Below the pieces are notes generated by a model. That model made no database searches, was not told the origin of the DNA, and saw only the letters and a program-made list of their open reading frames with translations. Position numbers and translations under genes: made by a program. DNA of 64,000 nt. It comes from Thermodesulfobacteriota bacterium (GTDB lineage: Bacteria; Desulfobacterota_D; UBA1144; Nemesobacterales; UBA2774). Positions within the stretch are counted from its first letter, which is position 1; each line of letters begins with the position of its first letter. This document shows, one piece after another, positions 1,706-17,161 of the stretch. The stretch lies in the NCBI GenBank assembly GCA_963422265.1, contig OY729416.1:704001-768000 (forward strand), written 5' to 3'.

Positions 1706-3106
1706 CTAGCTTAGGTCTTCTTTTAGACTCTTAACTATTCCTTCCACCATTTTCTTTCCATCCCCGAAAAGCATAAGGGTATTGTCCGCAGCGAATAGAG
1801 GATTAGGAATACCAGCGAATCCTGGACTTAGACTTCGCTTGATCACGACAACCGTCTTTGAGTAATCTACATCTAAAATTGGCATCCCCGCTATTGGGCT
1901 CTGAGGATCCGTCCTTGCAACTGGGTTAACCACATCGTTCGCTCCAATAATAATAGTAACATCAACCTGCCTAAAGCCAGGGTTAATATCATCCATATCT
2001 TTAAGCCTGTCATAAGGAATATCAGCTTCTGCAAGAAGAACATTCATATGTCCAGGCATACGTCCCGCCACGGGATGCACACCGAACTCAACAATAGCGC
2101 CATGACCCTCTAGCAAGTCGAAAAGCTCTCTTACCGCGTGCTGCGCCTGAGCAACCGCCATTCCATAACCGGGGACTACGCATACCTTTTTAGCTCCCTC
2201 AAGAAGCATCGCAACCTCTTCGGGGGAAGTCGCTTTCACCTTGCCCTTATAAACGTCATCTGCTGAAGGTCCCCCTTCAACGGCGCCAAAAGTGCCGAAT
2301 AGGACATCAGTCAAAGAACGGTTCATCGCTTTACACATTATTATCGTTAATATGATTCCCGATGCTCCCACCAAAGTTCCCGCCACGATAAGCACAGTGT
2401 TATGAAAGACAAACCCCGTTGCGGCAGCGGCTAATCCAGAGAATGAATTTAAGAGAGCTATAACGACCGGCATATCCGCCCCGCCTATTGGAATCACAAA
2501 TAGAATTCCCAGTACGGAAGCAGCTATAACCATCAGCCAATACAATGTTGAAGATCCAGGATAAACCACCATAAAGTAGGCAAAAACCAGCGTTAAAAGT
2601 GCTAGAATGATTTTGACTATTTGATCTCCGGGATAGCGGACTGATCCCTCATCCGCGAGACCCTGAAGCTTGCCGAATGCGACAAGACTTCCCCAGAACG
2701 TAACCGCACCTATGAGCCCAGAAACAAACGTAGCAATAGAAGACTGAGGGTTCACCGATTCAGGACCTATTAGGATGGACGTTTCAAGTAATGCAGCCCC
2801 TGCAACTAAGACGGATGCTATTCCACCGAACCCGTTATACAAGGCGACTAGCTGAGGCATTGCGGTCATTTGAATCCTGATAGCCAAAGCGGATCCTATT
2901 CCACCCCCAACTATGATCCCAGCGAATATTATCCAGTAACTGACGATATTCTTATGAAGCAAAGTTACCAAGACGGCTAAGAGCATTCCCAGAGCGCCGA
3001 GCAGGTTTCCCCTGACTGCCGTTCTAGGATGGGAAAGCCCCTTGAGGCCAAATATAAACAAAGCCGCAGCTATTAAATAGATGATGTTGACGAGCTCAGA
3101 AGACAT
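1706..3106 (-). CDS. pntB: NAD(P) transhydrogenase subunit beta
   Basis: Multi-TM N-terminus; GGADMPVV, VPGYGMAVAQAQH, HPVAGRMPGHMNV and GANDVVNP motifs. Confidence 0.97.
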   Translation of the reverse strand: MSSELVNIIYLIAAALFIFGLKGLSHPRTAVRGNLLGALGMLLAVLVTLLHKNIVSYWIIFAGIIVGGGIGSALAIRIQMTAMPQLVALYNGFGGIASVLVAGAALLETSILIGPESVNPQSSIATFVSGLIGAVTFWGSLVAFGKLQGLADEGSVRYPGDQIVKIILALLTLVFAYFMVVYPGSSTLYWLMVIAASVLGILFVIPIGGADMPVVIALLNSFSGLAAAATGFVFHNTVLIVAGTLVGASGIILTIIMCKAMNRSLTDVLFGTFGAVEGGPSADDVYKGKVKATSPEEVAMLLEGAKKVCVVPGYGMAVAQAQHAVRELFDLLEGHGAIVEFGVHPVAGRMPGHMNVLLAEADIPYDRLKDMDDINPGFRQVDVTIIIGANDVVNPVARTDPQSPIAGMPILDVDYSKTVVVIKRSLSPGFAGIPNPLFAADNTLMLFGDGKKMVEGIVKSLKEDLS

Positions 3107-3108
3107 AT

Positions 3109-3390
3109 TTAATCCTTCCTTTTGAACATCTCTAACATTCGGTTGGTCACCATAAATCCACCCACAACATTAATTGTCGCAAGAGCAACTGCAAGAAATC
3201 CAAGCACGGTAGTAAGCAACGTGACCTGAGTCCCCGCTGATAGTATTGCCCCTATTAGAATAATTCCTGATATAGCGTTTGAGCCCGACATTAAAGGGGT
3301 ATGGAGCGTAGGAGGAACCTTAGTTATTACCTCAAAACCCACAAAAGCAGCTAGAACAAATATGGTAAACGCCATTGCAAAGCTATCCAT
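3109..3390 (-). CDS. pntA: NAD(P) transhydrogenase subunit alpha part 2 (membrane)
   Basis: VPPTLHTPLMSGSNAISG, NVVGGFMVTNRMLEMF. Confidence 0.95.
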   Translation of the reverse strand: MDSFAMAFTIFVLAAFVGFEVITKVPPTLHTPLMSGSNAISGIILIGAILSAGTQVTLLTTVLGFLAVALATINVVGGFMVTNRMLEMFKRKD

Positions 3391-3420
3391 TTTGTAGCCC
3401 TCCCGAATTTAGTCCTCTTC

Positions 3421-4569
3421 CTATAATCGCAAACTTTCCCTTACCCGATCGTTGACTACTTTGCCGTCGTCAGTAATAAGAGTTTCCCTTAGTATTTCAT
3501 CCTCTAAATCTATGTAGAGCTTTTCATCTTTAACCATTAAAAGAAGAAGATTTGCAATATTCTTGGAATACATCTGACTCGCATGATAAGGAACGCTTGA
3601 CGGAACGTTTTGCGGACCTATGACAGTTACTCCGTCTTTCCTAATAGTCTTACCCGCTTCCGTAAATTCACAATTACCGCCGCTCTCAGCCGCAAGATCT
3701 ACTATTACGGATCCCTGACCCATACCTGCAACCATCTCCTTAGTAACCAGAATCGGCGCTTTCCTGCCTGGAATTGCCGCTGTAGTTATAACGGCATCGC
3801 TTTCAGCAATAACCTTAGCCATGAGATCCTGCTGCTTTTTGTAAAACTCTTCATCCATCTCTTTTGCGTAACCACCCTCGTCTTCAGAGTCCCCTGCTTC
3901 AAGCTCAAGCTCTACGAATTTCGCCCCCAAGCTCTGCACCTGCTCTTTGACGGCAGGACGAACGTCATAAGCCGAGACTACGGCTCCTAGACGATTGCAT
4001 GTAGCTATCGCCTGCAGTCCCGCCACCCCAGCACCAACAACAAAAACACGAGCTGGTGTGATCGTTCCGGCGGCGGTCATCATCATCGGAAACATTCTTG
4101 CAAGGGATTGCGCCGCTATCAGAGCAGCTTTGTAGCCTGCAATGTTAGCCTGTGAAGAAAGAACATCCATGCTCTGGGCTCGCGTGATACGCGGAACAAG
4201 CTCCAGCGCAAATGCCTTAACCCCTTTTAATGCTAGGGCATTTACCGCCTGCTTATTAGTCAAAGCATCTAAAAGTCCTATTAATATCTTACCTTTCCCA
4301 AGCTTCTTTAGATCCTCAGCGTCACTATCGGGATTGCAACCTACTACCCTTACTTGCAAGAGCACGTCCGCCTTCGCAAATACTTCATCGCGGTCGGAAA
4401 TAACCGCTCCTTGCTCTTTATACATCTCATCAGTAAAGCCCGCTTCTAATCCTGCACCCGACTCTACGCGCACGGTGAAGCCCGCATTACTAAGCGCAGG
4501 TAGTCCACTAGGAATTAATGCCACCCGTCTTTCCCCGGCAAACGTTTCTTTTAAGATTCCAACGATCAT
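3421..4569 (-). CDS. pntA: NAD(P) transhydrogenase subunit alpha part 1 (domain I)
   Basis: ERRVAL, PRITRAQSMDVLSSQ, GAGVAGLQAI, DLAAESGGNCE; likely start MIVGIL at 4569 (ORF track extends to 4596). Confidence 0.96.
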   Translation of the reverse strand: MIVGILKETFAGERRVALIPSGLPALSNAGFTVRVESGAGLEAGFTDEMYKEQGAVISDRDEVFAKADVLLQVRVVGCNPDSDAEDLKKLGKGKILIGLLDALTNKQAVNALALKGVKAFALELVPRITRAQSMDVLSSQANIAGYKAALIAAQSLARMFPMMMTAAGTITPARVFVVGAGVAGLQAIATCNRLGAVVSAYDVRPAVKEQVQSLGAKFVELELEAGDSEDEGGYAKEMDEEFYKKQQDLMAKVIAESDAVITTAAIPGRKAPILVTKEMVAGMGQGSVIVDLAAESGGNCEFTEAGKTIRKDGVTVIGPQNVPSSVPYHASQMYSKNIANLLLLMVKDEKLYIDLEDEILRETLITDDGKVVNDRVRESLRL

Positions 4570-10936: not shown

Positions 10937-12331
10937 CTACCGAGCAAAAGGAACAGCATCAATAACTTCAATACGGACTTCTTCTGGCGCTGCATTTAGA
11001 AATCCAGCTTCGATATCTCTAAAAGTCCTTCTACTATGCGCAGGCAGCACGTCGTAAATTATCGCTCGATTTGAAGACGTTGGAGATCCTCCCCTAAACG
11101 AGAAGAACTTAACCTTAAACTCAATTTTGGCGTAATCAATGCCACTCTTGTTACTAAGCGTGATCTCTGATATCTTGCCTATAGTTTGCGCGACGCCTCC
11201 CCCCCATACAAAATCTTCAACTATAATGTCATGACGAGGAAGTGGGACCTCTTCAACTTCATACTGGTCTTGGGCTAGCGTAGTTTGCTTGTCCGGCAAT
11301 TGTTCTTTGTCTTGCAGGGGCTTTTGCTCGGACCCTATTGCCGGTTCTTTAAGTGCTACACTATCCTCAAGTCCAACTGACGCTCCTTCCCGCTCTTGCT
11401 CTAACCTTTTCTTGTATCTTTCAGATAGAGAAAGCCTTTTGCTTCCCTGGGATTCATAATCTTGCTGTAAAGACTTGTCCAAGTTAGCGTCACTTTCTAA
11501 CCTCTTTACGGATTTGCCTTCCTTTTGAGCAATCCTGTAACGTAGCTCCTTTTCAGATATGAGCTTTGCACTTACCACGCTTACCATGTCTCTGCTCGCG
11601 CCCGGATGCCTGAAGCCAACGTTCACGTCCTTAAACGTCACCTCACCTTTAGCTGGAATAACGTCGTGGATAACCGCTCTGCCAGCAAATCCTTTGCTCC
11701 CAACCTTAACGTTGCTCGCACCTGAAAAGTCAACCCTTATCTTAACGTCTTTCCAATTCTCATTGCTCTTGTTTACCAAGGTTAGTTCTTTCAGAATTCC
11801 TTCCGTTCCATATTGCCCTCCTATCCATTCCCAATCCTTTACTAATATAATATCCTTTACCTGAGTAGAATCTTCATCTTCAATTAACTCCGCCCCTACT
11901 ACTCTCGCAACGGTGTTTTGAAGTTCCGAGTGCATCATGCCAAATTCAATATTATAAAACGTTTTCTCGCTCCCAGACCGTAAGACGTCACTTATCATTG
12001 ATCTCAAAGAACCAATCGAAATACCGTTACCAGAATATAAATCAACTTCAATCGCAATATTTTCGTAGTCTTCCTCGCCACGATTCTCAAGGGTAATCTC
12101 TCCCAAAATGGCAGCCCTGCCCATCCCACCGGAAGCCCATTTATAGTCCTTAACCACTATGACACTCTTTGGAGACTCCGTTTTTTTTCTTATAGCGTTC
12201 ACGTCTTGGACAACGAGGTTAAGAAAACAAAACGAAAATATGGCTACTGTCATAAGGTTTAATATCTGATTAGCGAATCCGTAGCTATTAAGTCTGAATT
12301 TTGTAAGTCTCAATTTTGTCATGTAAGGCAT
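10937..12331 (-). CDS. Membrane-anchored or secreted hypothetical protein with three similar beta-rich (FxLYD-like) domains
   Basis: N-terminal hydrophobic stretch; three repeats of the pattern IxVxDxxWxGG...xEITLxNxxxxxYxxIxxxVxF. Confidence 0.7.
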   Translation of the reverse strand: MPYMTKLRLTKFRLNSYGFANQILNLMTVAIFSFCFLNLVVQDVNAIRKKTESPKSVIVVKDYKWASGGMGRAAILGEITLENRGEEDYENIAIEVDLYSGNGISIGSLRSMISDVLRSGSEKTFYNIEFGMMHSELQNTVARVVGAELIEDEDSTQVKDIILVKDWEWIGGQYGTEGILKELTLVNKSNENWKDVKIRVDFSGASNVKVGSKGFAGRAVIHDVIPAKGEVTFKDVNVGFRHPGASRDMVSVVSAKLISEKELRYRIAQKEGKSVKRLESDANLDKSLQQDYESQGSKRLSLSERYKKRLEQEREGASVGLEDSVALKEPAIGSEQKPLQDKEQLPDKQTTLAQDQYEVEEVPLPRHDIIVEDFVWGGGVAQTIGKISEITLSNKSGIDYAKIEFKVKFFSFRGGSPTSSNRAIIYDVLPAHSRRTFRDIEAGFLNAAPEEVRIEVIDAVPFAR

Positions 12332-13191: not shown

Positions 13192-15003
13192 ATGGGTAAA
13201 ATAAGGATTCTTTCCGACAATTTAGTCTCCAAAATTGCAGCAGGGGAAATAGTCGAAAGACCCGCTTCTGTAGTCAAAGAACTAATTGAAAACTCAATCG
13301 ACGCTAGCAGCACAATGATTGAAGTTGAGATTGAGAACGGCGGGAAAAGGCTAATCAGGGTATCGGATAACGGTGAGGGAATGACAAGAGATGAGTCCCT
13401 TATGTCATTAGAAAGGCACGCGACTAGTAAAATTAAAGATATTAAAGACTTGTTCTCTGTTAGCACGTTGGGGTTCCGAGGCGAAGCAATACCAAGCATA
13501 GCTAGCGTGTCGAGATTCAAGGTAACGACCATATCTCAAGGCGAAGAGATCGGCACTGTAATCAACGTTGAGGGTGGAAAGATAAGAAGCGTTGAGGAAA
13601 TTGGCGCTCCACAAGGCACTACTACAGAAGTTAAGAACTTATTTTATAATACGCCCGCAAGGCTTAAATTTATGAGAAAGATTGAAACCGAAGTTACTAA
13701 CGTTTTAAGCATCGTAGAGCGAGAAGCTATTTCACATCCCGAAATTGGTTTTAGGTTAAACAGCGACGGAAAAACACTGCTCCATTTCCTTGCGAGAAAA
13801 AGTATTGATAAAAGGGTCCAAGAAATATACCCAAACACCAACCTCTTTCCGATCGTCGCAAGCGTAGAAGAAGTAGGCGTGTCGGGTCTTATGTCAAGCC
13901 CGCTTGATCACCGGTCATCCGCTCAAAAGATTTTTATATACGTCAACCTAAGGAGCGTAAAAGATAGACTCTTAACACGCATGATAATCAACTCCTATGG
14001 AAAAATGCTTGAGAAGGGCAAATTTCCACAGGGTGCGCTTTTCGTAGAAATACCACCTGAGCAGGTAGACGTCAACGTCCACCCTAGCAAAAACGAAGTC
14101 AGATTTAAGAACACAAGACTTATTGACGGCTTGATAAAGTCATCAATAACAAGAATGCTTGAAAATGCTCCCTGGATTAAGGATTACCATAAAAGAGTTG
14201 AGGGCGCCGTTAGTAATTTTGAACAAAGACGCTACGACGTTACAATTCCTCATATAAGTCACCTACGTGAACCTAAACGGGCAGTCTATAAAAATTGGAC
14301 TGATACGAACGCCGCCTACGAACGTTTAAGCCAAGAAGGCGCAAACAAGCAAAACGAAACCAAGCCACAAATAACGATCAATAAACCCAAAGGACAAGAT
14401 TTATTCAAGAACAAGGGCTTTTATTCAAGCCTTAAAGTAATTGGTCAACTGGGCGAGCTATACATAGTCTGCGCCTCTCAAAATGGAATGGTTCTCGTAG
14501 ATCAGCACGCCGCCCATGAAAGGATAAATTATGAAAAGGTTAAAAAGGCTTACGCTAAATCAGGCGCCCTCGACGCGCAGGAGATGCTCGTTCCGGAGAC
14601 CGTTGAATTCTCTCCTTATGAAGCAGGTTTGATTGAAAGGCATGGAGAAGAAATTAAACGATTGGGATTAAGGGTAGAGAATTTTGGCGACAACGCCTTC
14701 ATAATTAGATCAACTCCCGCTATATTAAATAATATAGACTGCGCGAGCCTATTAAAAGACATAGCTTCCGAGATTGCCGACGTTGGCATGGAGAAAAGTA
14801 TTAGCGAAAGAATAGACCGCGCAATATCAACAATAGCATGTCACTCATCTATAAGAGCTAACCAAGGGCTTGACGCTCAAAAAATGGAAGCCCTTCTTCA
14901 AGGGCTTGATCATTCAGACTTTCCACACTCGTGTCCCCACGGTAGACCAGTAGCTCGTGAAGTTACGTTTTACGAGATAGAGAAGATGTTTAAAAGAACG
15001 TAG
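13192..15003 (+). CDS. mutL: DNA mismatch repair endonuclease MutL
   Basis: IAAGEIVERPASVVKELIENSIDA, GFRGEA, DQHAAHERINYE, CPHGRP. Confidence 0.98.
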   Translation: MGKIRILSDNLVSKIAAGEIVERPASVVKELIENSIDASSTMIEVEIENGGKRLIRVSDNGEGMTRDESLMSLERHATSKIKDIKDLFSVSTLGFRGEAIPSIASVSRFKVTTISQGEEIGTVINVEGGKIRSVEEIGAPQGTTTEVKNLFYNTPARLKFMRKIETEVTNVLSIVEREAISHPEIGFRLNSDGKTLLHFLARKSIDKRVQEIYPNTNLFPIVASVEEVGVSGLMSSPLDHRSSAQKIFIYVNLRSVKDRLLTRMIINSYGKMLEKGKFPQGALFVEIPPEQVDVNVHPSKNEVRFKNTRLIDGLIKSSITRMLENAPWIKDYHKRVEGAVSNFEQRRYDVTIPHISHLREPKRAVYKNWTDTNAAYERLSQEGANKQNETKPQITINKPKGQDLFKNKGFYSSLKVIGQLGELYIVCASQNGMVLVDQHAAHERINYEKVKKAYAKSGALDAQEMLVPETVEFSPYEAGLIERHGEEIKRLGLRVENFGDNAFIIRSTPAILNNIDCASLLKDIASEIADVGMEKSISERIDRAISTIACHSSIRANQGLDAQKMEALLQGLDHSDFPHSCPHGRPVAREVTFYEIEKMFKRT

Positions 15004-15062
15004 ATACTTAGTCACTTTAAAACACTACGAATTTATTATGATGATTAATGGAGGTTCACAAC

Positions 15063-15635
15063 ATGGGCGTCGTTGAAACAAATCAATTTCACAAAGGGCT
15101 CAAAATTGAGTTTGAAGGAAATATATGGGAGATAATTGAATATCGTCACTCTAAAGTCGCTCAACGAAGCGCCGTGATGAAAACCAAGCTAAGAAACGTA
15201 GTCACCGGAGCCGTTCAGGAAAAGAATTTCCGCTCAGGCGATAGCTTTAAGGTTCCGGACGTGGACAGAAAAACTATGCAGTTTCTCTATAAAGATGACA
15301 TAGGCTATCACTTTATGGATTTAGATACCTACGAGCAGCACAGCCTTACCCCAAATCAAGTCGGTGAAGCAGCTAGGTTTCTAAAAGAACAGCAGGAGTT
15401 AAACGTTCTTTACTTTAATAATGAGCCCATGGGGCTGGAGCTGCCAACGGCTGTTGAGGTTGACGTAGTGGAAACCAATCCCGGCGTAAAAGGAGACACC
15501 GTATCAGGTAGCACTAAGCCCGCTAAGCTAGAGACCGGCGCTACCATCCAGGTGCCTCTTTTTATTGACGTAGGCAACTGTATAAGGGTTGATACAAGAA
15601 CTGGCGAATACTTAGATAGGATTAAAAAGAAGTAA
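15063..15635 (+). CDS. efp: Elongation factor P with a non-canonical tip loop (VAQR)
   Basis: GGAGG SD before ATG 15063; TKLRNVVTG, MQFLY, PGVKGDT, KPAKLETG, VPLFI, VDTRTGEY. Confidence 0.93.
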   Translation: MGVVETNQFHKGLKIEFEGNIWEIIEYRHSKVAQRSAVMKTKLRNVVTGAVQEKNFRSGDSFKVPDVDRKTMQFLYKDDIGYHFMDLDTYEQHSLTPNQVGEAARFLKEQQELNVLYFNNEPMGLELPTAVEVDVVETNPGVKGDTVSGSTKPAKLETGATIQVPLFIDVGNCIRVDTRTGEYLDRIKKK

Positions 15636-15804: not shown

Positions 15805-16650
15805 ATGAAAGAATACGCGCATCCTGAAGTCTTGGTAAATACAGATTGGGCAGCAGCCCACGTTGACGATCCTAAGGTAAGGATTATAGAATCGGATGAG
15901 GACGTGCTTTTATACGACGTGGGACACATAGAAGGCGCCGTTAAAGTTGACTGGCAAACAGACCTTCAAGATCAGTTGATTAGGGATTACGTAAATAGAG
16001 ACAAATTTGAGAAGCTCATGTCTGAAAAGGGGATATCTAACGATACCACGGCCGTTTTTTATGGAGATAGAAACAATTGGTGGGCTTGTTACGCCTTTTG
16101 GGTATTTAAGTTGTTTGGACACGAGAAATGCCTTATAATAAACGGCGGAAGACAGAAATGGGTTGAAGAGGGACGCCCGCTCACAAAAGAGGTAAAAGAA
16201 TATCCCAAGACTGATTACCAAGTCTCGGGAACAGATGAATCCATACGCGCATTCAGGGATGACGTTACGGTGCATATGGGGTCTGGCAAACCATTGATAG
16301 ACGTTCGCTCTCCAAAAGAATACAGCGGAGAACTCCTACACATGGAGGCGTACCCACAGGAAGGCGCCCTCCGAGGCGGCCACATTCCCGGGGCTGCGAA
16401 CGTTCCATGGGCTACGGCTGCTAATGAGAACGGCACGTTTAAATCCGCTGACGAGCTTCGATCTATATATATGGAAAGTAAGGGGCTTAAAACTGACGAC
16501 GAAGTTATAGCTTATTGCAGGATTGGGGAGAGGTCATCTCACACCTGGTTTGTGCTGACGTATCTCTTGGGCTTTGAGAGAACAAGAAACTACGACGGTT
16601 CTTGGACGGAGTGGGGTAATCTTGTCAGGGTGCCTATAGAAAGACCTTAA
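15805..16650 (+). CDS. Tandem-rhodanese sulfurtransferase (SseA/CysA-like)
   Basis: [39 protein letters not shown]. Confidence 0.93.
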
Positions 16651-16735: not shown

Positions 16736-17161
16736 ATGAGTAGGATAAAAGATATAATAGAGGCGTTTCAGGAAGCCGATTATCAGGAGACGCTTGCAAT
16801 GCTTCTTGATTATTCAGAGGTACTACCTGAGATTCCGGATGAATACGTAGAGGCGCGGAACGCCGGTTATAACAGGGTGACAGAGTGCGAAACCCCTGTT
16901 TTTATATGGGTCGACGTGAAAGAGGGTAAAGTCAAAATTTATGCGGACGCCCCCGCGGAATCCCCAACGGTAAGGGGGTTCGTATCCCTCTTGGTTGACG
17001 CATTTGACGGCGCCACCCCAAAAGAGATAGAAGACGCCCCGTCATATCTCATAAATAGTCTCGGCTTGGACCGCAAGCTAGGCACAAGACGCATGTTTGG
17101 ATTGAGCGCTGTGTATAATCGTATTAAAAACGACGTGAAGCACGCAACGCAAATGAGCTAA
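16736..17161 (+). CDS. sufE: SufE family sulfur acceptor
   Basis: RVTECETPVFIW (conserved Cys), ESPTVRGF. Confidence 0.88.
   Translation: MSRIKDIIEAFQEADYQETLAMLLDYSEVLPEIPDEYVEARNAGYNRVTECETPVFIWVDVKEGKVKIYADAPAESPTVRGFVSLLVDAFDGATPKEIEDAPSYLINSLGLDRKLGTRRMFGLSAVYNRIKNDVKHATQMS

Follow-up and report, generated by a model that had tools for sequence, protein, structure and literature searches.

Elongation factor P (EF-P) and IF5A are universal factors, and the working rule of the field is that the residue at their tip is Lys or Arg, usually lengthened by a costly modification. The locus described here raises the question of how an EF-P may work when this residue is Gln. The gene in question, efp, lies in a stretch of 64,000 nucleotides (the window, to which plain positions refer) taken from contig OY729416.1 of a Thermodesulfobacteriota bacterium (positions 704,001 to 768,000, assembly GCA_963422265.1). 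The explanation that we favour, with moderate confidence and from sequence comparison, is that the protein descends from arginine-type EF-Ps and needs no modification, the contact being supplied by Arg35, the neighbour of the Gln tip. This is based on the identity of the gene, its single copy, the purifying selection on it, the absence of matches to known modifiers and the retention of polyproline motifs in the genome.

The efp gene and its loop

The protein was identified as EF-P by profile search, with 233.8 bits on NCBIfam TIGR00038 (efp, cut-off 185.8) and 234.2 on NF001810 (cut-off 161), and the Pfam domains PF08207, PF01132 and PF09285, each above its cut-off, give it the three-domain architecture of EF-P. 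Its HMMER alignments to solved EF-Ps contain no gaps, that to E. coli 6enj_w among them (query residues 5-188 on chain residues 5-188), and EF-P structures were the best Foldseek matches of its AlphaFold2 model (probability 1.00), which has a mean pLDDT of 84.1. Judged by TIGR00038, the three Pfam domains and Foldseek, the protein outside the loop is thus a typical EF-P, as an earlier note on this DNA had described it. The features of the gene, all on the plus strand, are the following:

15050..15054, +, Shine-Dalgarno-like GGAGG, 8 nt 5' of ATG 15063, read from the sequence
15063..15635, +, efp coding sequence of 190 codons with a TAA stop; no other efp in the genome
15078..15248, +, domain I, KOW-like EFP_N, residues 6-62, bearing the beta3-omega-beta4 loop (PF08207, 69.7 bits)
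15153..15173, +, seven-residue beta3-omega-beta4 loop K31-V32-A33-Q34-R35-S36-A37 (DSSP on the AlphaFold2 model, gapless alignment)
15162..15164, +, codon CAA for Gln34, equivalent to E. coli Lys34 (translation, alignment)
15165..15167, +, codon CGA for Arg35, the proposed functional basic residue (translation, codon comparison)
15270..15428, +, domain II, EF-P OB domain, residues 70-122 (PF01132, 74.7 bits)
15453..15620, +, domain III, Elong-fact-P_C, residues 131-186 (PF09285, 93.4 bits)
15492..15500, +, G144-D145-T146, the domain III loop that makes the E-site codon contact in E. coli EF-P

Translation likely starts at ATG 15063 and not at ATG 15048 of a longer open reading frame (ORF), since the GGAGG lies 8 nt ahead of the former and the homologues begin with MGVV, giving the longer ORF no support. 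Counted from ATG 15063, residues 29-37 read H-S-K-V-A-Q-R-S-A (codons CAC TCT AAA GTC GCT CAA CGA AGC GCC, nt 15147-15173). The HMMER alignment to 1yby sets the query 'skvaqrsa' over 'vkpgkgaa', which places Gln34 at the position of the tip lysine; the loop given in the earlier note, K31-V-A-Q34-R35-S-A37, therefore stands on translation and gapless alignment alike. In the AlphaFold2 model, DSSP assigns strands to residues 20-30 and 38-45, and the loop between them (31-37) has seven residues with Gln34 in its centre, so that the apex, position 34 in E. coli numbering, is neither Lys nor Arg.

Such tips have been catalogued before, as the earlier note had suspected. Volkwein et al. (2019, PMC6544042) tabulated position 34 of 1166 EF-Ps and report K in 81.11%, R in 14.75%, N in 2.23%, M in 0.77%, Q in 0.6% and A in 0.51%. 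Proteins with Q, N, M or A tips are included among the EF-Ps there, so that a Lys or Arg tip is typical of the family and not formally defining.

Outside the loop, 35 alignment columns are invariant across the clade, residues of domain III among them. Gly144 and Thr146 are invariant and Asp145 is kept in at least 90% of 44 clade sequences, in which Tyr183 and Arg186 are invariant as well. Asp145 and Thr146 of E. coli EF-P touch the E-site codon, according to a 2026 review in Nucleic Acids Research (NAR; PMC12856214).

Copy number, conservation and need for EF-P

The host genome is a single contig of 1,783,595 bp, 99.42% complete and Candidatus Dadabacteria-like. Searches with the protein or the family model (E up to 10) found exactly one efp-family match in it, and one match each was found in 39 of 41 genomes of the order, host included; the two genomes without an efp match are 59% and 74% complete. 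These counts bear on the proposal of the earlier note that the protein could be a specialised or secondary paralogue, like EfpL or YeiP, standing beside a canonical EF-P. Non-canonical tips are typical of EfpL-like paralogues and some genomes do carry two EF-Ps, but besides being alone the protein scored below the cut-offs of both EfpL (131.8 versus 216) and YeiP (115.9 versus 264), and its loop has seven residues, not nine. We have therefore rejected the paralogue, whose probability we consider almost negligible.

The same low probability applies to the idea that the Gln codon is a sequencing or assembly error, a private decay, or the drift of an EF-P no longer needed in a reduced genome. The genome is indeed small (1.78 Mb), and a Gln tip inactivates E. 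coli EF-P. Against this, two contigs from two further studies (X5 and X6, from P2 and P3) span 15147-15173 without a listed difference, X1 being possibly the source assembly itself, and the loop recurs throughout the relatives, which are metagenome-assembled genomes (MAGs) labelled Candidatus Dadabacteria, Thermodesulfobacteriota or Deltaproteobacteria. Gln34 is present in 34 of the 39 efp-bearing genomes of the order, distributed as follows:

A-Q-R-S, 33 genomes, families f1, f3, f6, f7 and f8
A-Q-R-R, 1 genome, G033
A-R-R-S, 1 genome, G027
M-G-R-(M/S)-(G/S), 4 genomes, G025, G028, G032 (via locus L080) and G038

AQRS thus prevails in the order, and the supposition that all close relatives might carry PGKG does not hold. 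Among the 120 best database homologues, 119 loops were readable, with Gln at position 34 in 97, Arg in 21 and Lys in one. Among 80 named genome loci, AQRS occurs in 29, which are without exception Dadabacteria, Thermodesulfobacteriota or MAGs with similar labels. The nearest genome matches outside the clade, from Rokubacteria, Oligoflexia and other groups (at most 51% identity), have K-P-G-K-G, the loop of 49 of the 80 loci. The codons vary where the residues do not: in 34 AQRS rows (one genome, G026, counted twice) Gln34 is encoded by CAG in 28 and CAA in six, and all six Arg codons are used for Arg35 (AGA 16, AGG 6, CGA 4, CGC 3, CGT 3, CGG 2). Since synonymous codons vary at both positions, selection appears to act on the amino acids 34 and 35, which indicates that the loop is under purifying selection. 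By these comparisons the protein carries a clade-wide loop variant, S-K-[M/V/I]-A-Q-R-S-[A/P].

With the loop kept in relatives and the contigs of two further studies in agreement, chance and error can be set aside, and the comparisons confirm Gln34 as a real feature of the sole selected EF-P of this genome. The contigs of the other studies do differ from the window at 15275, 15351, 15414 and 15476-15477 within efp, the loop being unaffected; by our own codon reading these differences include codon changes at residues 97, 118 and 139, and they represent strain-level variation. Run X7, which is labelled RNA only by conjecture, extends over parts of the stretch and leaves the loop uncovered.

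The genome also keeps the sequences on which an EF-P acts. In a crude set of 1480 ORFs of the host genome, each of at least 90 aa, 92 PPP triplets were counted in 58 ORFs, compared with 36.8 +/- 6.8 after shuffling within proteins, and the longest proline runs reach 12 residues. ValS (valS, a crude ORF of 913 aa) keeps its proline triplet (IVIPPPNVTG) near the N-terminus, a triplet that is reportedly near-universal. The ABCF linker domain PF12848, the only ABCF model tried, was not found in the host genome, and the same query, run as a control on 14 reference genomes, gave matches in eight; by this query the host would be without a Uup, EttA or YfmR-type factor. Three tRNA-Pro genes (CGG, UGG and GGG) look canonical. 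Since PPP is over-represented and kept in ValS, PF12848 was not found and the domain III residues are conserved, the organism appears to depend on its single EF-P, and the 35 invariant columns are likewise hard to reconcile with a drifting gene.

Several further observations were made on the host contig (G000:C1). Crude ORFs with 7 to about 12 uninterrupted prolines lie outside the window at G000:C1:85936-86694, 986006-987283, 134953-136038 and 1191246-1192277; if these are real genes, they would be strong EF-P substrates. ARAGORN listed a fourth tRNA-Pro, with anticodon AGG (G000:C1:613545-613620), whose acceptor end is unlike those of the other three; this may be an unusual tRNA or simply a false prediction. 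Two ORFs of 323 aa (G000:C1:894978-895949 and 1300249-1301220) share the N-terminal motif KEVPPPPIER and probably stem from a gene duplication or a mobile element.

Tip switching and the search for a modifier

We have inferred a maximum-likelihood tree from 145 EF-Ps, leaving the loop columns out of the alignment. The Dadabacteria-type clade (98% support in the Shimodaira-Hasegawa-like approximate likelihood ratio test, SH-aLRT; 23 rows) contains 17 Q, five R and one K tip. The A-R-R-S/G forms lie within the A-Q-R-R group, A-K-R-S stands beside A-Q-Q-S and A-Q-R-S, and the M-G-R-M-G group lies among Q forms. Since R and K forms nest among the Q forms, position 34 seems to have switched several times between Q, R and K. 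The pairs at positions 34 and 35 of the 119 clade sequences are QR in 96, RM in 16, RQ in three, RR in two, and KR and QQ in one each, so that Arg35 is present in 99 and a basic residue (Arg or Lys) at 34 or 35 in 118. Position 34 would thus be tolerant (Q, R or K), and the requirement that 34 or 35 be basic nearly absolute.

The Q34-R35 pair is also found well away from the host. Among the 150 nearest 50%-identity representatives outside the clade, nine more loops have Gln34: K-I-A-Q-A-R-A, R-T-A-Q-R-R-A, R-T-A-Q-R-K-P, K-M-Q-Q-R-A-P, R-M-S-Q-S-A-A, K-I-A-Q-R-Q-A, K-M-Q-Q-R-T-P, R-M-Q-Q-R-K-A and R-K-S-Q-A-R-A. Eight of the nine have Arg at 35 or 36, and none has Gly33. They are scattered over the tree (12 parsimony changes, at least four of them forced by well-supported branches), and two directly adjoin R-type loops. 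K-M-Q-Q-R-A-P was present in all 80 loci from Dehalococcoidia, SAR202 and Chloroflexota MAGs (L140-L219, efp at about 3001-3567 of each), within a longer invariant stretch H-K-M-Q-Q-R-A-P-V-T, and in each of five complete Dehalococcoidia chromosomes the sole efp is of the Q34-R35 type. From this scatter and the separate Dehalococcoidia/SAR202 lineage, Q34-R35 is, as far as sequences tell, a solution found repeatedly in proline-less EF-Ps, in which it takes the place of the G-R-G tip.

Another kind of tip was met among the same nearest representatives: 11 of them (P0180, P0187, P0189, P0196, P0229, P0241, P0245, P0247, P0249, P0252 and P0258) have Asn-tip loops (T-P-G-N-L-R-A, T-P-G-N-W-R-A and similar), with Arg two positions past the tip. 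In Volkwein et al. (2019, PMC6544042), N tips are linked to genes resembling deoxyhypusine synthase (DHS).

No known EF-P modifier was found in the host genome, nor a second efp, in the searches that the earlier note had proposed. Neither PF10093, the EarP model (E up to 1), nor TIGR03821 for EpmB had a match. The best match to the EpmA model TIGR00462 (244.3 bits, cut-off 286.9) is a protein of 494 aa that proved to be LysS (706.4 bits, cut-off 468), and the best match to the YmfI model NF047420 (219 bits, cut-off 238) is FabG (TIGR01830, 337.2 bits, cut-off 297.75). The loop K-V-A-Q-R-S-A departs from each modified type in the same way: the EpmA/EpmB type has K34, P32 and G33 along with both enzymes, the EarP type has R34 and EarP, and the YmfI type has a tip Lys, a proline two residues upstream and YmfI, whereas here the tip is Gln34.

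The protein most likely works like other EF-Ps. The variant would have arisen within the proline-32-less EF-Ps of the arginine type; the unmodified Arg35, next to the apex, would provide the stabilising positive charge, Gln34 would serve as a tolerant polar apex residue, and no post-translational modification would be needed. The protein would then be unmodified in the cell, with Arg35, alone or together with Gln34, contacting the tRNA, which would make the loop a shifted form of the unmodified arginine-type design. Modification independence, one of the options in the earlier note, is thus the one now favoured, given the modifiers not found, the conserved Arg35 and the basic residue in 118 of 119 sequences; the contact with the CCA end, also suggested there, stays a proposal.

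Several points weigh against this explanation. The loop block of the AlphaFold2 model has low confidence (about 64), and with Ala at position 33 and Gln at 34 a different loop conformation would be required. One clade member, P0111 (AQQS), has neither Arg nor Lys at 34 or 35. A DHS-like gene is present in the host genome and in 38 of the 41 genomes of the order. In E. coli, the EF-P variants K34A, K34M, K34N and K34Q are all inactive, and G33 is essential in the EF-Ps of E. coli and P. putida (PMC6544042). Brewer et al. (2026, PMC12931083) point out that genomics cannot separate unmodified EF-Ps from those modified by an undescribed pathway, and EF-P types that fit none of the known modification classes are reported for about half of bacterial genomes (PMC13602936).

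These points bear on the strongest rival, which we nevertheless judge unlikely: that a novel post-translational modification, at Gln34, Arg35 or Lys31, activates the loop by giving it back a long and charged extension comparable to beta-lysyl-lysine, hypusine or rhamnosyl-arginine. Most characterised EF-P/IF5A proteins do need a modified tip, as the inactive K34Q illustrates, and further modification classes are expected for many EF-Ps. A dedicated acceptor, however, would not be expected to toggle among Q, R and K from one close relative to the next, and two candidate enzymes were considered.

The first candidate is the DHS-like gene, which scores 295.8 bits on PF01916 and 411.7 on NF002006 (cut-off 434) and is located as follows:

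L035:1444-2532, minus strand, equal to about 1641816-1642754 of G000:C1, outside the window: DHS-like gene (PF01916)

It adjoins thrC and thiE, not polyamine genes or efp. Its distribution does not follow the Q type, and we have rejected it as the EF-P modifier, counting it only as a minor point within the modification rival: DHS-like genes are also found in the R34-type genomes G025, G028 and G034 (G038 has a weak match only, and the R34-type G032 has none), no such gene was found in the five Dehalococcoidia genomes whose sole EF-P is Q34-R35, and DHS itself acts on lysine. It is also marked absent for the Q-tip Thermodesulfovibrio yellowstonii (PMC6544042), and according to the NAR review (PMC12856214) no experiment ties bacterial DHS homologues to EF-P. 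Several genomes of the order carry two copies of the family, and the DHS-like gene may act in polyamine metabolism.

The second candidate is a TgpA-like transglutaminase, whose gene follows efp downstream at a distance of about 2 kb in 13 of 31 related loci and does not adjoin efp in the host. Transglut_core was not found in three of three genomes of the Q-type family f6 (two of them single-contig, 96-98% complete) or in the one genome of f3, and R-type genomes of the order do have matches; on these grounds it was rejected as well.

The efp neighbourhoods were compared in the two Q-type lineages. In Dadabacteria the order is mutL, a SIS protein, efp, an extracytoplasmic function (ECF) sigma factor, an anti-sigma factor, Metal_resist and then TgpA-like or RimP/NusA; in SAR202 it is an integrase-family recombinase (presumably Xer-like), aroQ in some loci, an M24 peptidase, efp, xseA, xseB and a formyltransferase. 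No gene is common to the two, and none in either resembles a modifier. The novel modification, raised in the earlier note as an alternative, is thus weakened, both by the toggling and by the want of a modifier-like neighbour in two independent Q-type lineages. Its most specific form, in which Gln34 itself is the acceptor of a new EF-P activation, by enzymatic attachment of a polyamine or another amine to the carboxamide or by N5-methylation, is weakened by the present evidence too, and we regard it as quite improbable.

Around the host gene the arrangement differs from that of most family-level relatives (compare L055 and L068): there is no adjoining SIS gene or sigma module, and rhodanese and SufE genes follow. 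A further ORF of the window, 464 aa long (10937-12331, minus strand), matched no Pfam model at E up to 0.001. The window positions given for the arrangement around efp are:

13192-15003, +, ORF
15805-16650, +, ORF
16736-17161, +, ORF

Significance and comparison with known systems

What is already known is that Gln tips exist, having been tabulated in 2019, and the mechanism proposed here for the Q type is a proposal. What is new is the conserved Q-R motif and its recurrence in several lineages, its presence as the clade-wide sole EF-P in Dadabacteria and Dehalococcoidia/SAR202, and the tolerance for Q, R or K at 34 together with the nearly absolute basic residue at 34 or 35. A Gln-tip EF-P is the only copy in whole lineages (Dadabacteria, and Dehalococcoidia/SAR202-labelled Chloroflexota). 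We consider the finding incremental and not surprising, since Gln tips had been counted in 2019 and unmodified arginine-type EF-Ps were shown to work in 2024-2026. The literature found contains nothing that joins EF-P and Dadabacteria; by title, it includes no characterised natural Gln-tip EF-P and, for elongation factor P with Thermodesulfovibrio, nothing on EF-P subtypes, although the supplements of a bioRxiv preprint and of PMC12931083 may list more loops.

Should the protein be unmodified, its positive charge would not have to be placed at the apex, and A-Q-R instead of G-K/R-G would be a second working loop geometry, adding a design principle for modification-free EF-Ps, which are of current engineering interest (Tomasiunaite preprint). 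If it is modified, a new modification class would be at hand. Were Gln34 the acceptor, the Q-R loop would mark a fourth class in Dadabacteria, SAR202 and Thermodesulfovibrio, with a rebuilt tip, long, charged or tuned, that is chemically parallel to hypusine or beta-lysyl-lysine.

Compared with the beta-lysylated E. coli EF-P (6enj/6enu), the protein aligns without gaps over 5-188 and has the same three domains, GDT loop, Tyr183 and Arg186, but P32, G33, K34 and G35 are all replaced and EpmA/EpmB were not found. The PGKGP EF-P of Corynebacterium glutamicum (6s8z) tops the Foldseek list by query-normalised TM-score (0.75), and it works unmodified in its native host (Tomasiunaite preprint; NAR review, PMC12856214). 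Its tip Lys is stiffened by two flanking prolines, whereas the loop here reads V-A-Q-R-S and does not belong to that subfamily. EfpL/YeiP of E. coli (8s8u) is similar in fold (query-normalised TM-score 0.73), and in EfpL an unmodified Arg33 near the loop tip suffices for activity (PMC12856214); it differs in that its loop is two residues longer (9 versus 7) and in being a secondary factor beside a canonical EF-P. With sub-cut-off scores, a seven-residue loop and a single efp, the present protein is not of this type.

By motif the protein falls into the Gln-tip category of Volkwein et al. (2019, PMC6544042), in which Q34 and P32 have 0% co-occurrence: it has V32 with Q34, and these EF-Ps likewise have Gln34 without Pro32. 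The cultured T. yellowstonii (YP_002248247.1) has M32/Q34, with EpmA, EarP, DHS and YmfI marked absent, and differs in this last respect from the host, which has a DHS-like gene. The available text of that study gives residue counts and an ancestral-state remark, and contains no Q-R motif, no Dadabacteria or SAR202 and no test of a natural Q type.

The closest functional precedent is the unmodified arginine type (EfpL, Deinococcus and others), which was missing from the list of EF-P types in the earlier note. Deinococcus radiodurans EF-P is active in E. coli without modification, and 206 arginine-type EF-Ps have no known modifier (Brewer et al. 2026, PMC12931083). EF-Ps from distant bacteria often do not work in E. 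coli. Like the EF-Ps of Thermus thermophilus (1ueb, 4v6a) and Deinococcus, the protein is a sole three-domain EF-P with a seven-residue loop and no Pro32, in a genome where no known modifier was found. The T. thermophilus structure 1ueb ranks second in the Foldseek list, and T. thermophilus has a DHS-like gene too; sister lineages of the order keep K-M-G-R-M-G with Arg34, and Q loops often stand beside R-type loops on the tree. The differences are that the apex is Gln with Arg one position later, and that both glycines flanking the tip (G-R-G) are replaced in A-Q-R-S. Measured against the arginine-type motif K-[M/L]-G-R-G-G-A, the protein shares the lack of Pro32 and of EarP, but its Arg is at 35 and both flanking glycines are lost. 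Taken together, the comparisons suggest a protein derived from, or adjacent to, the arginine type, rather than a member of it by motif.

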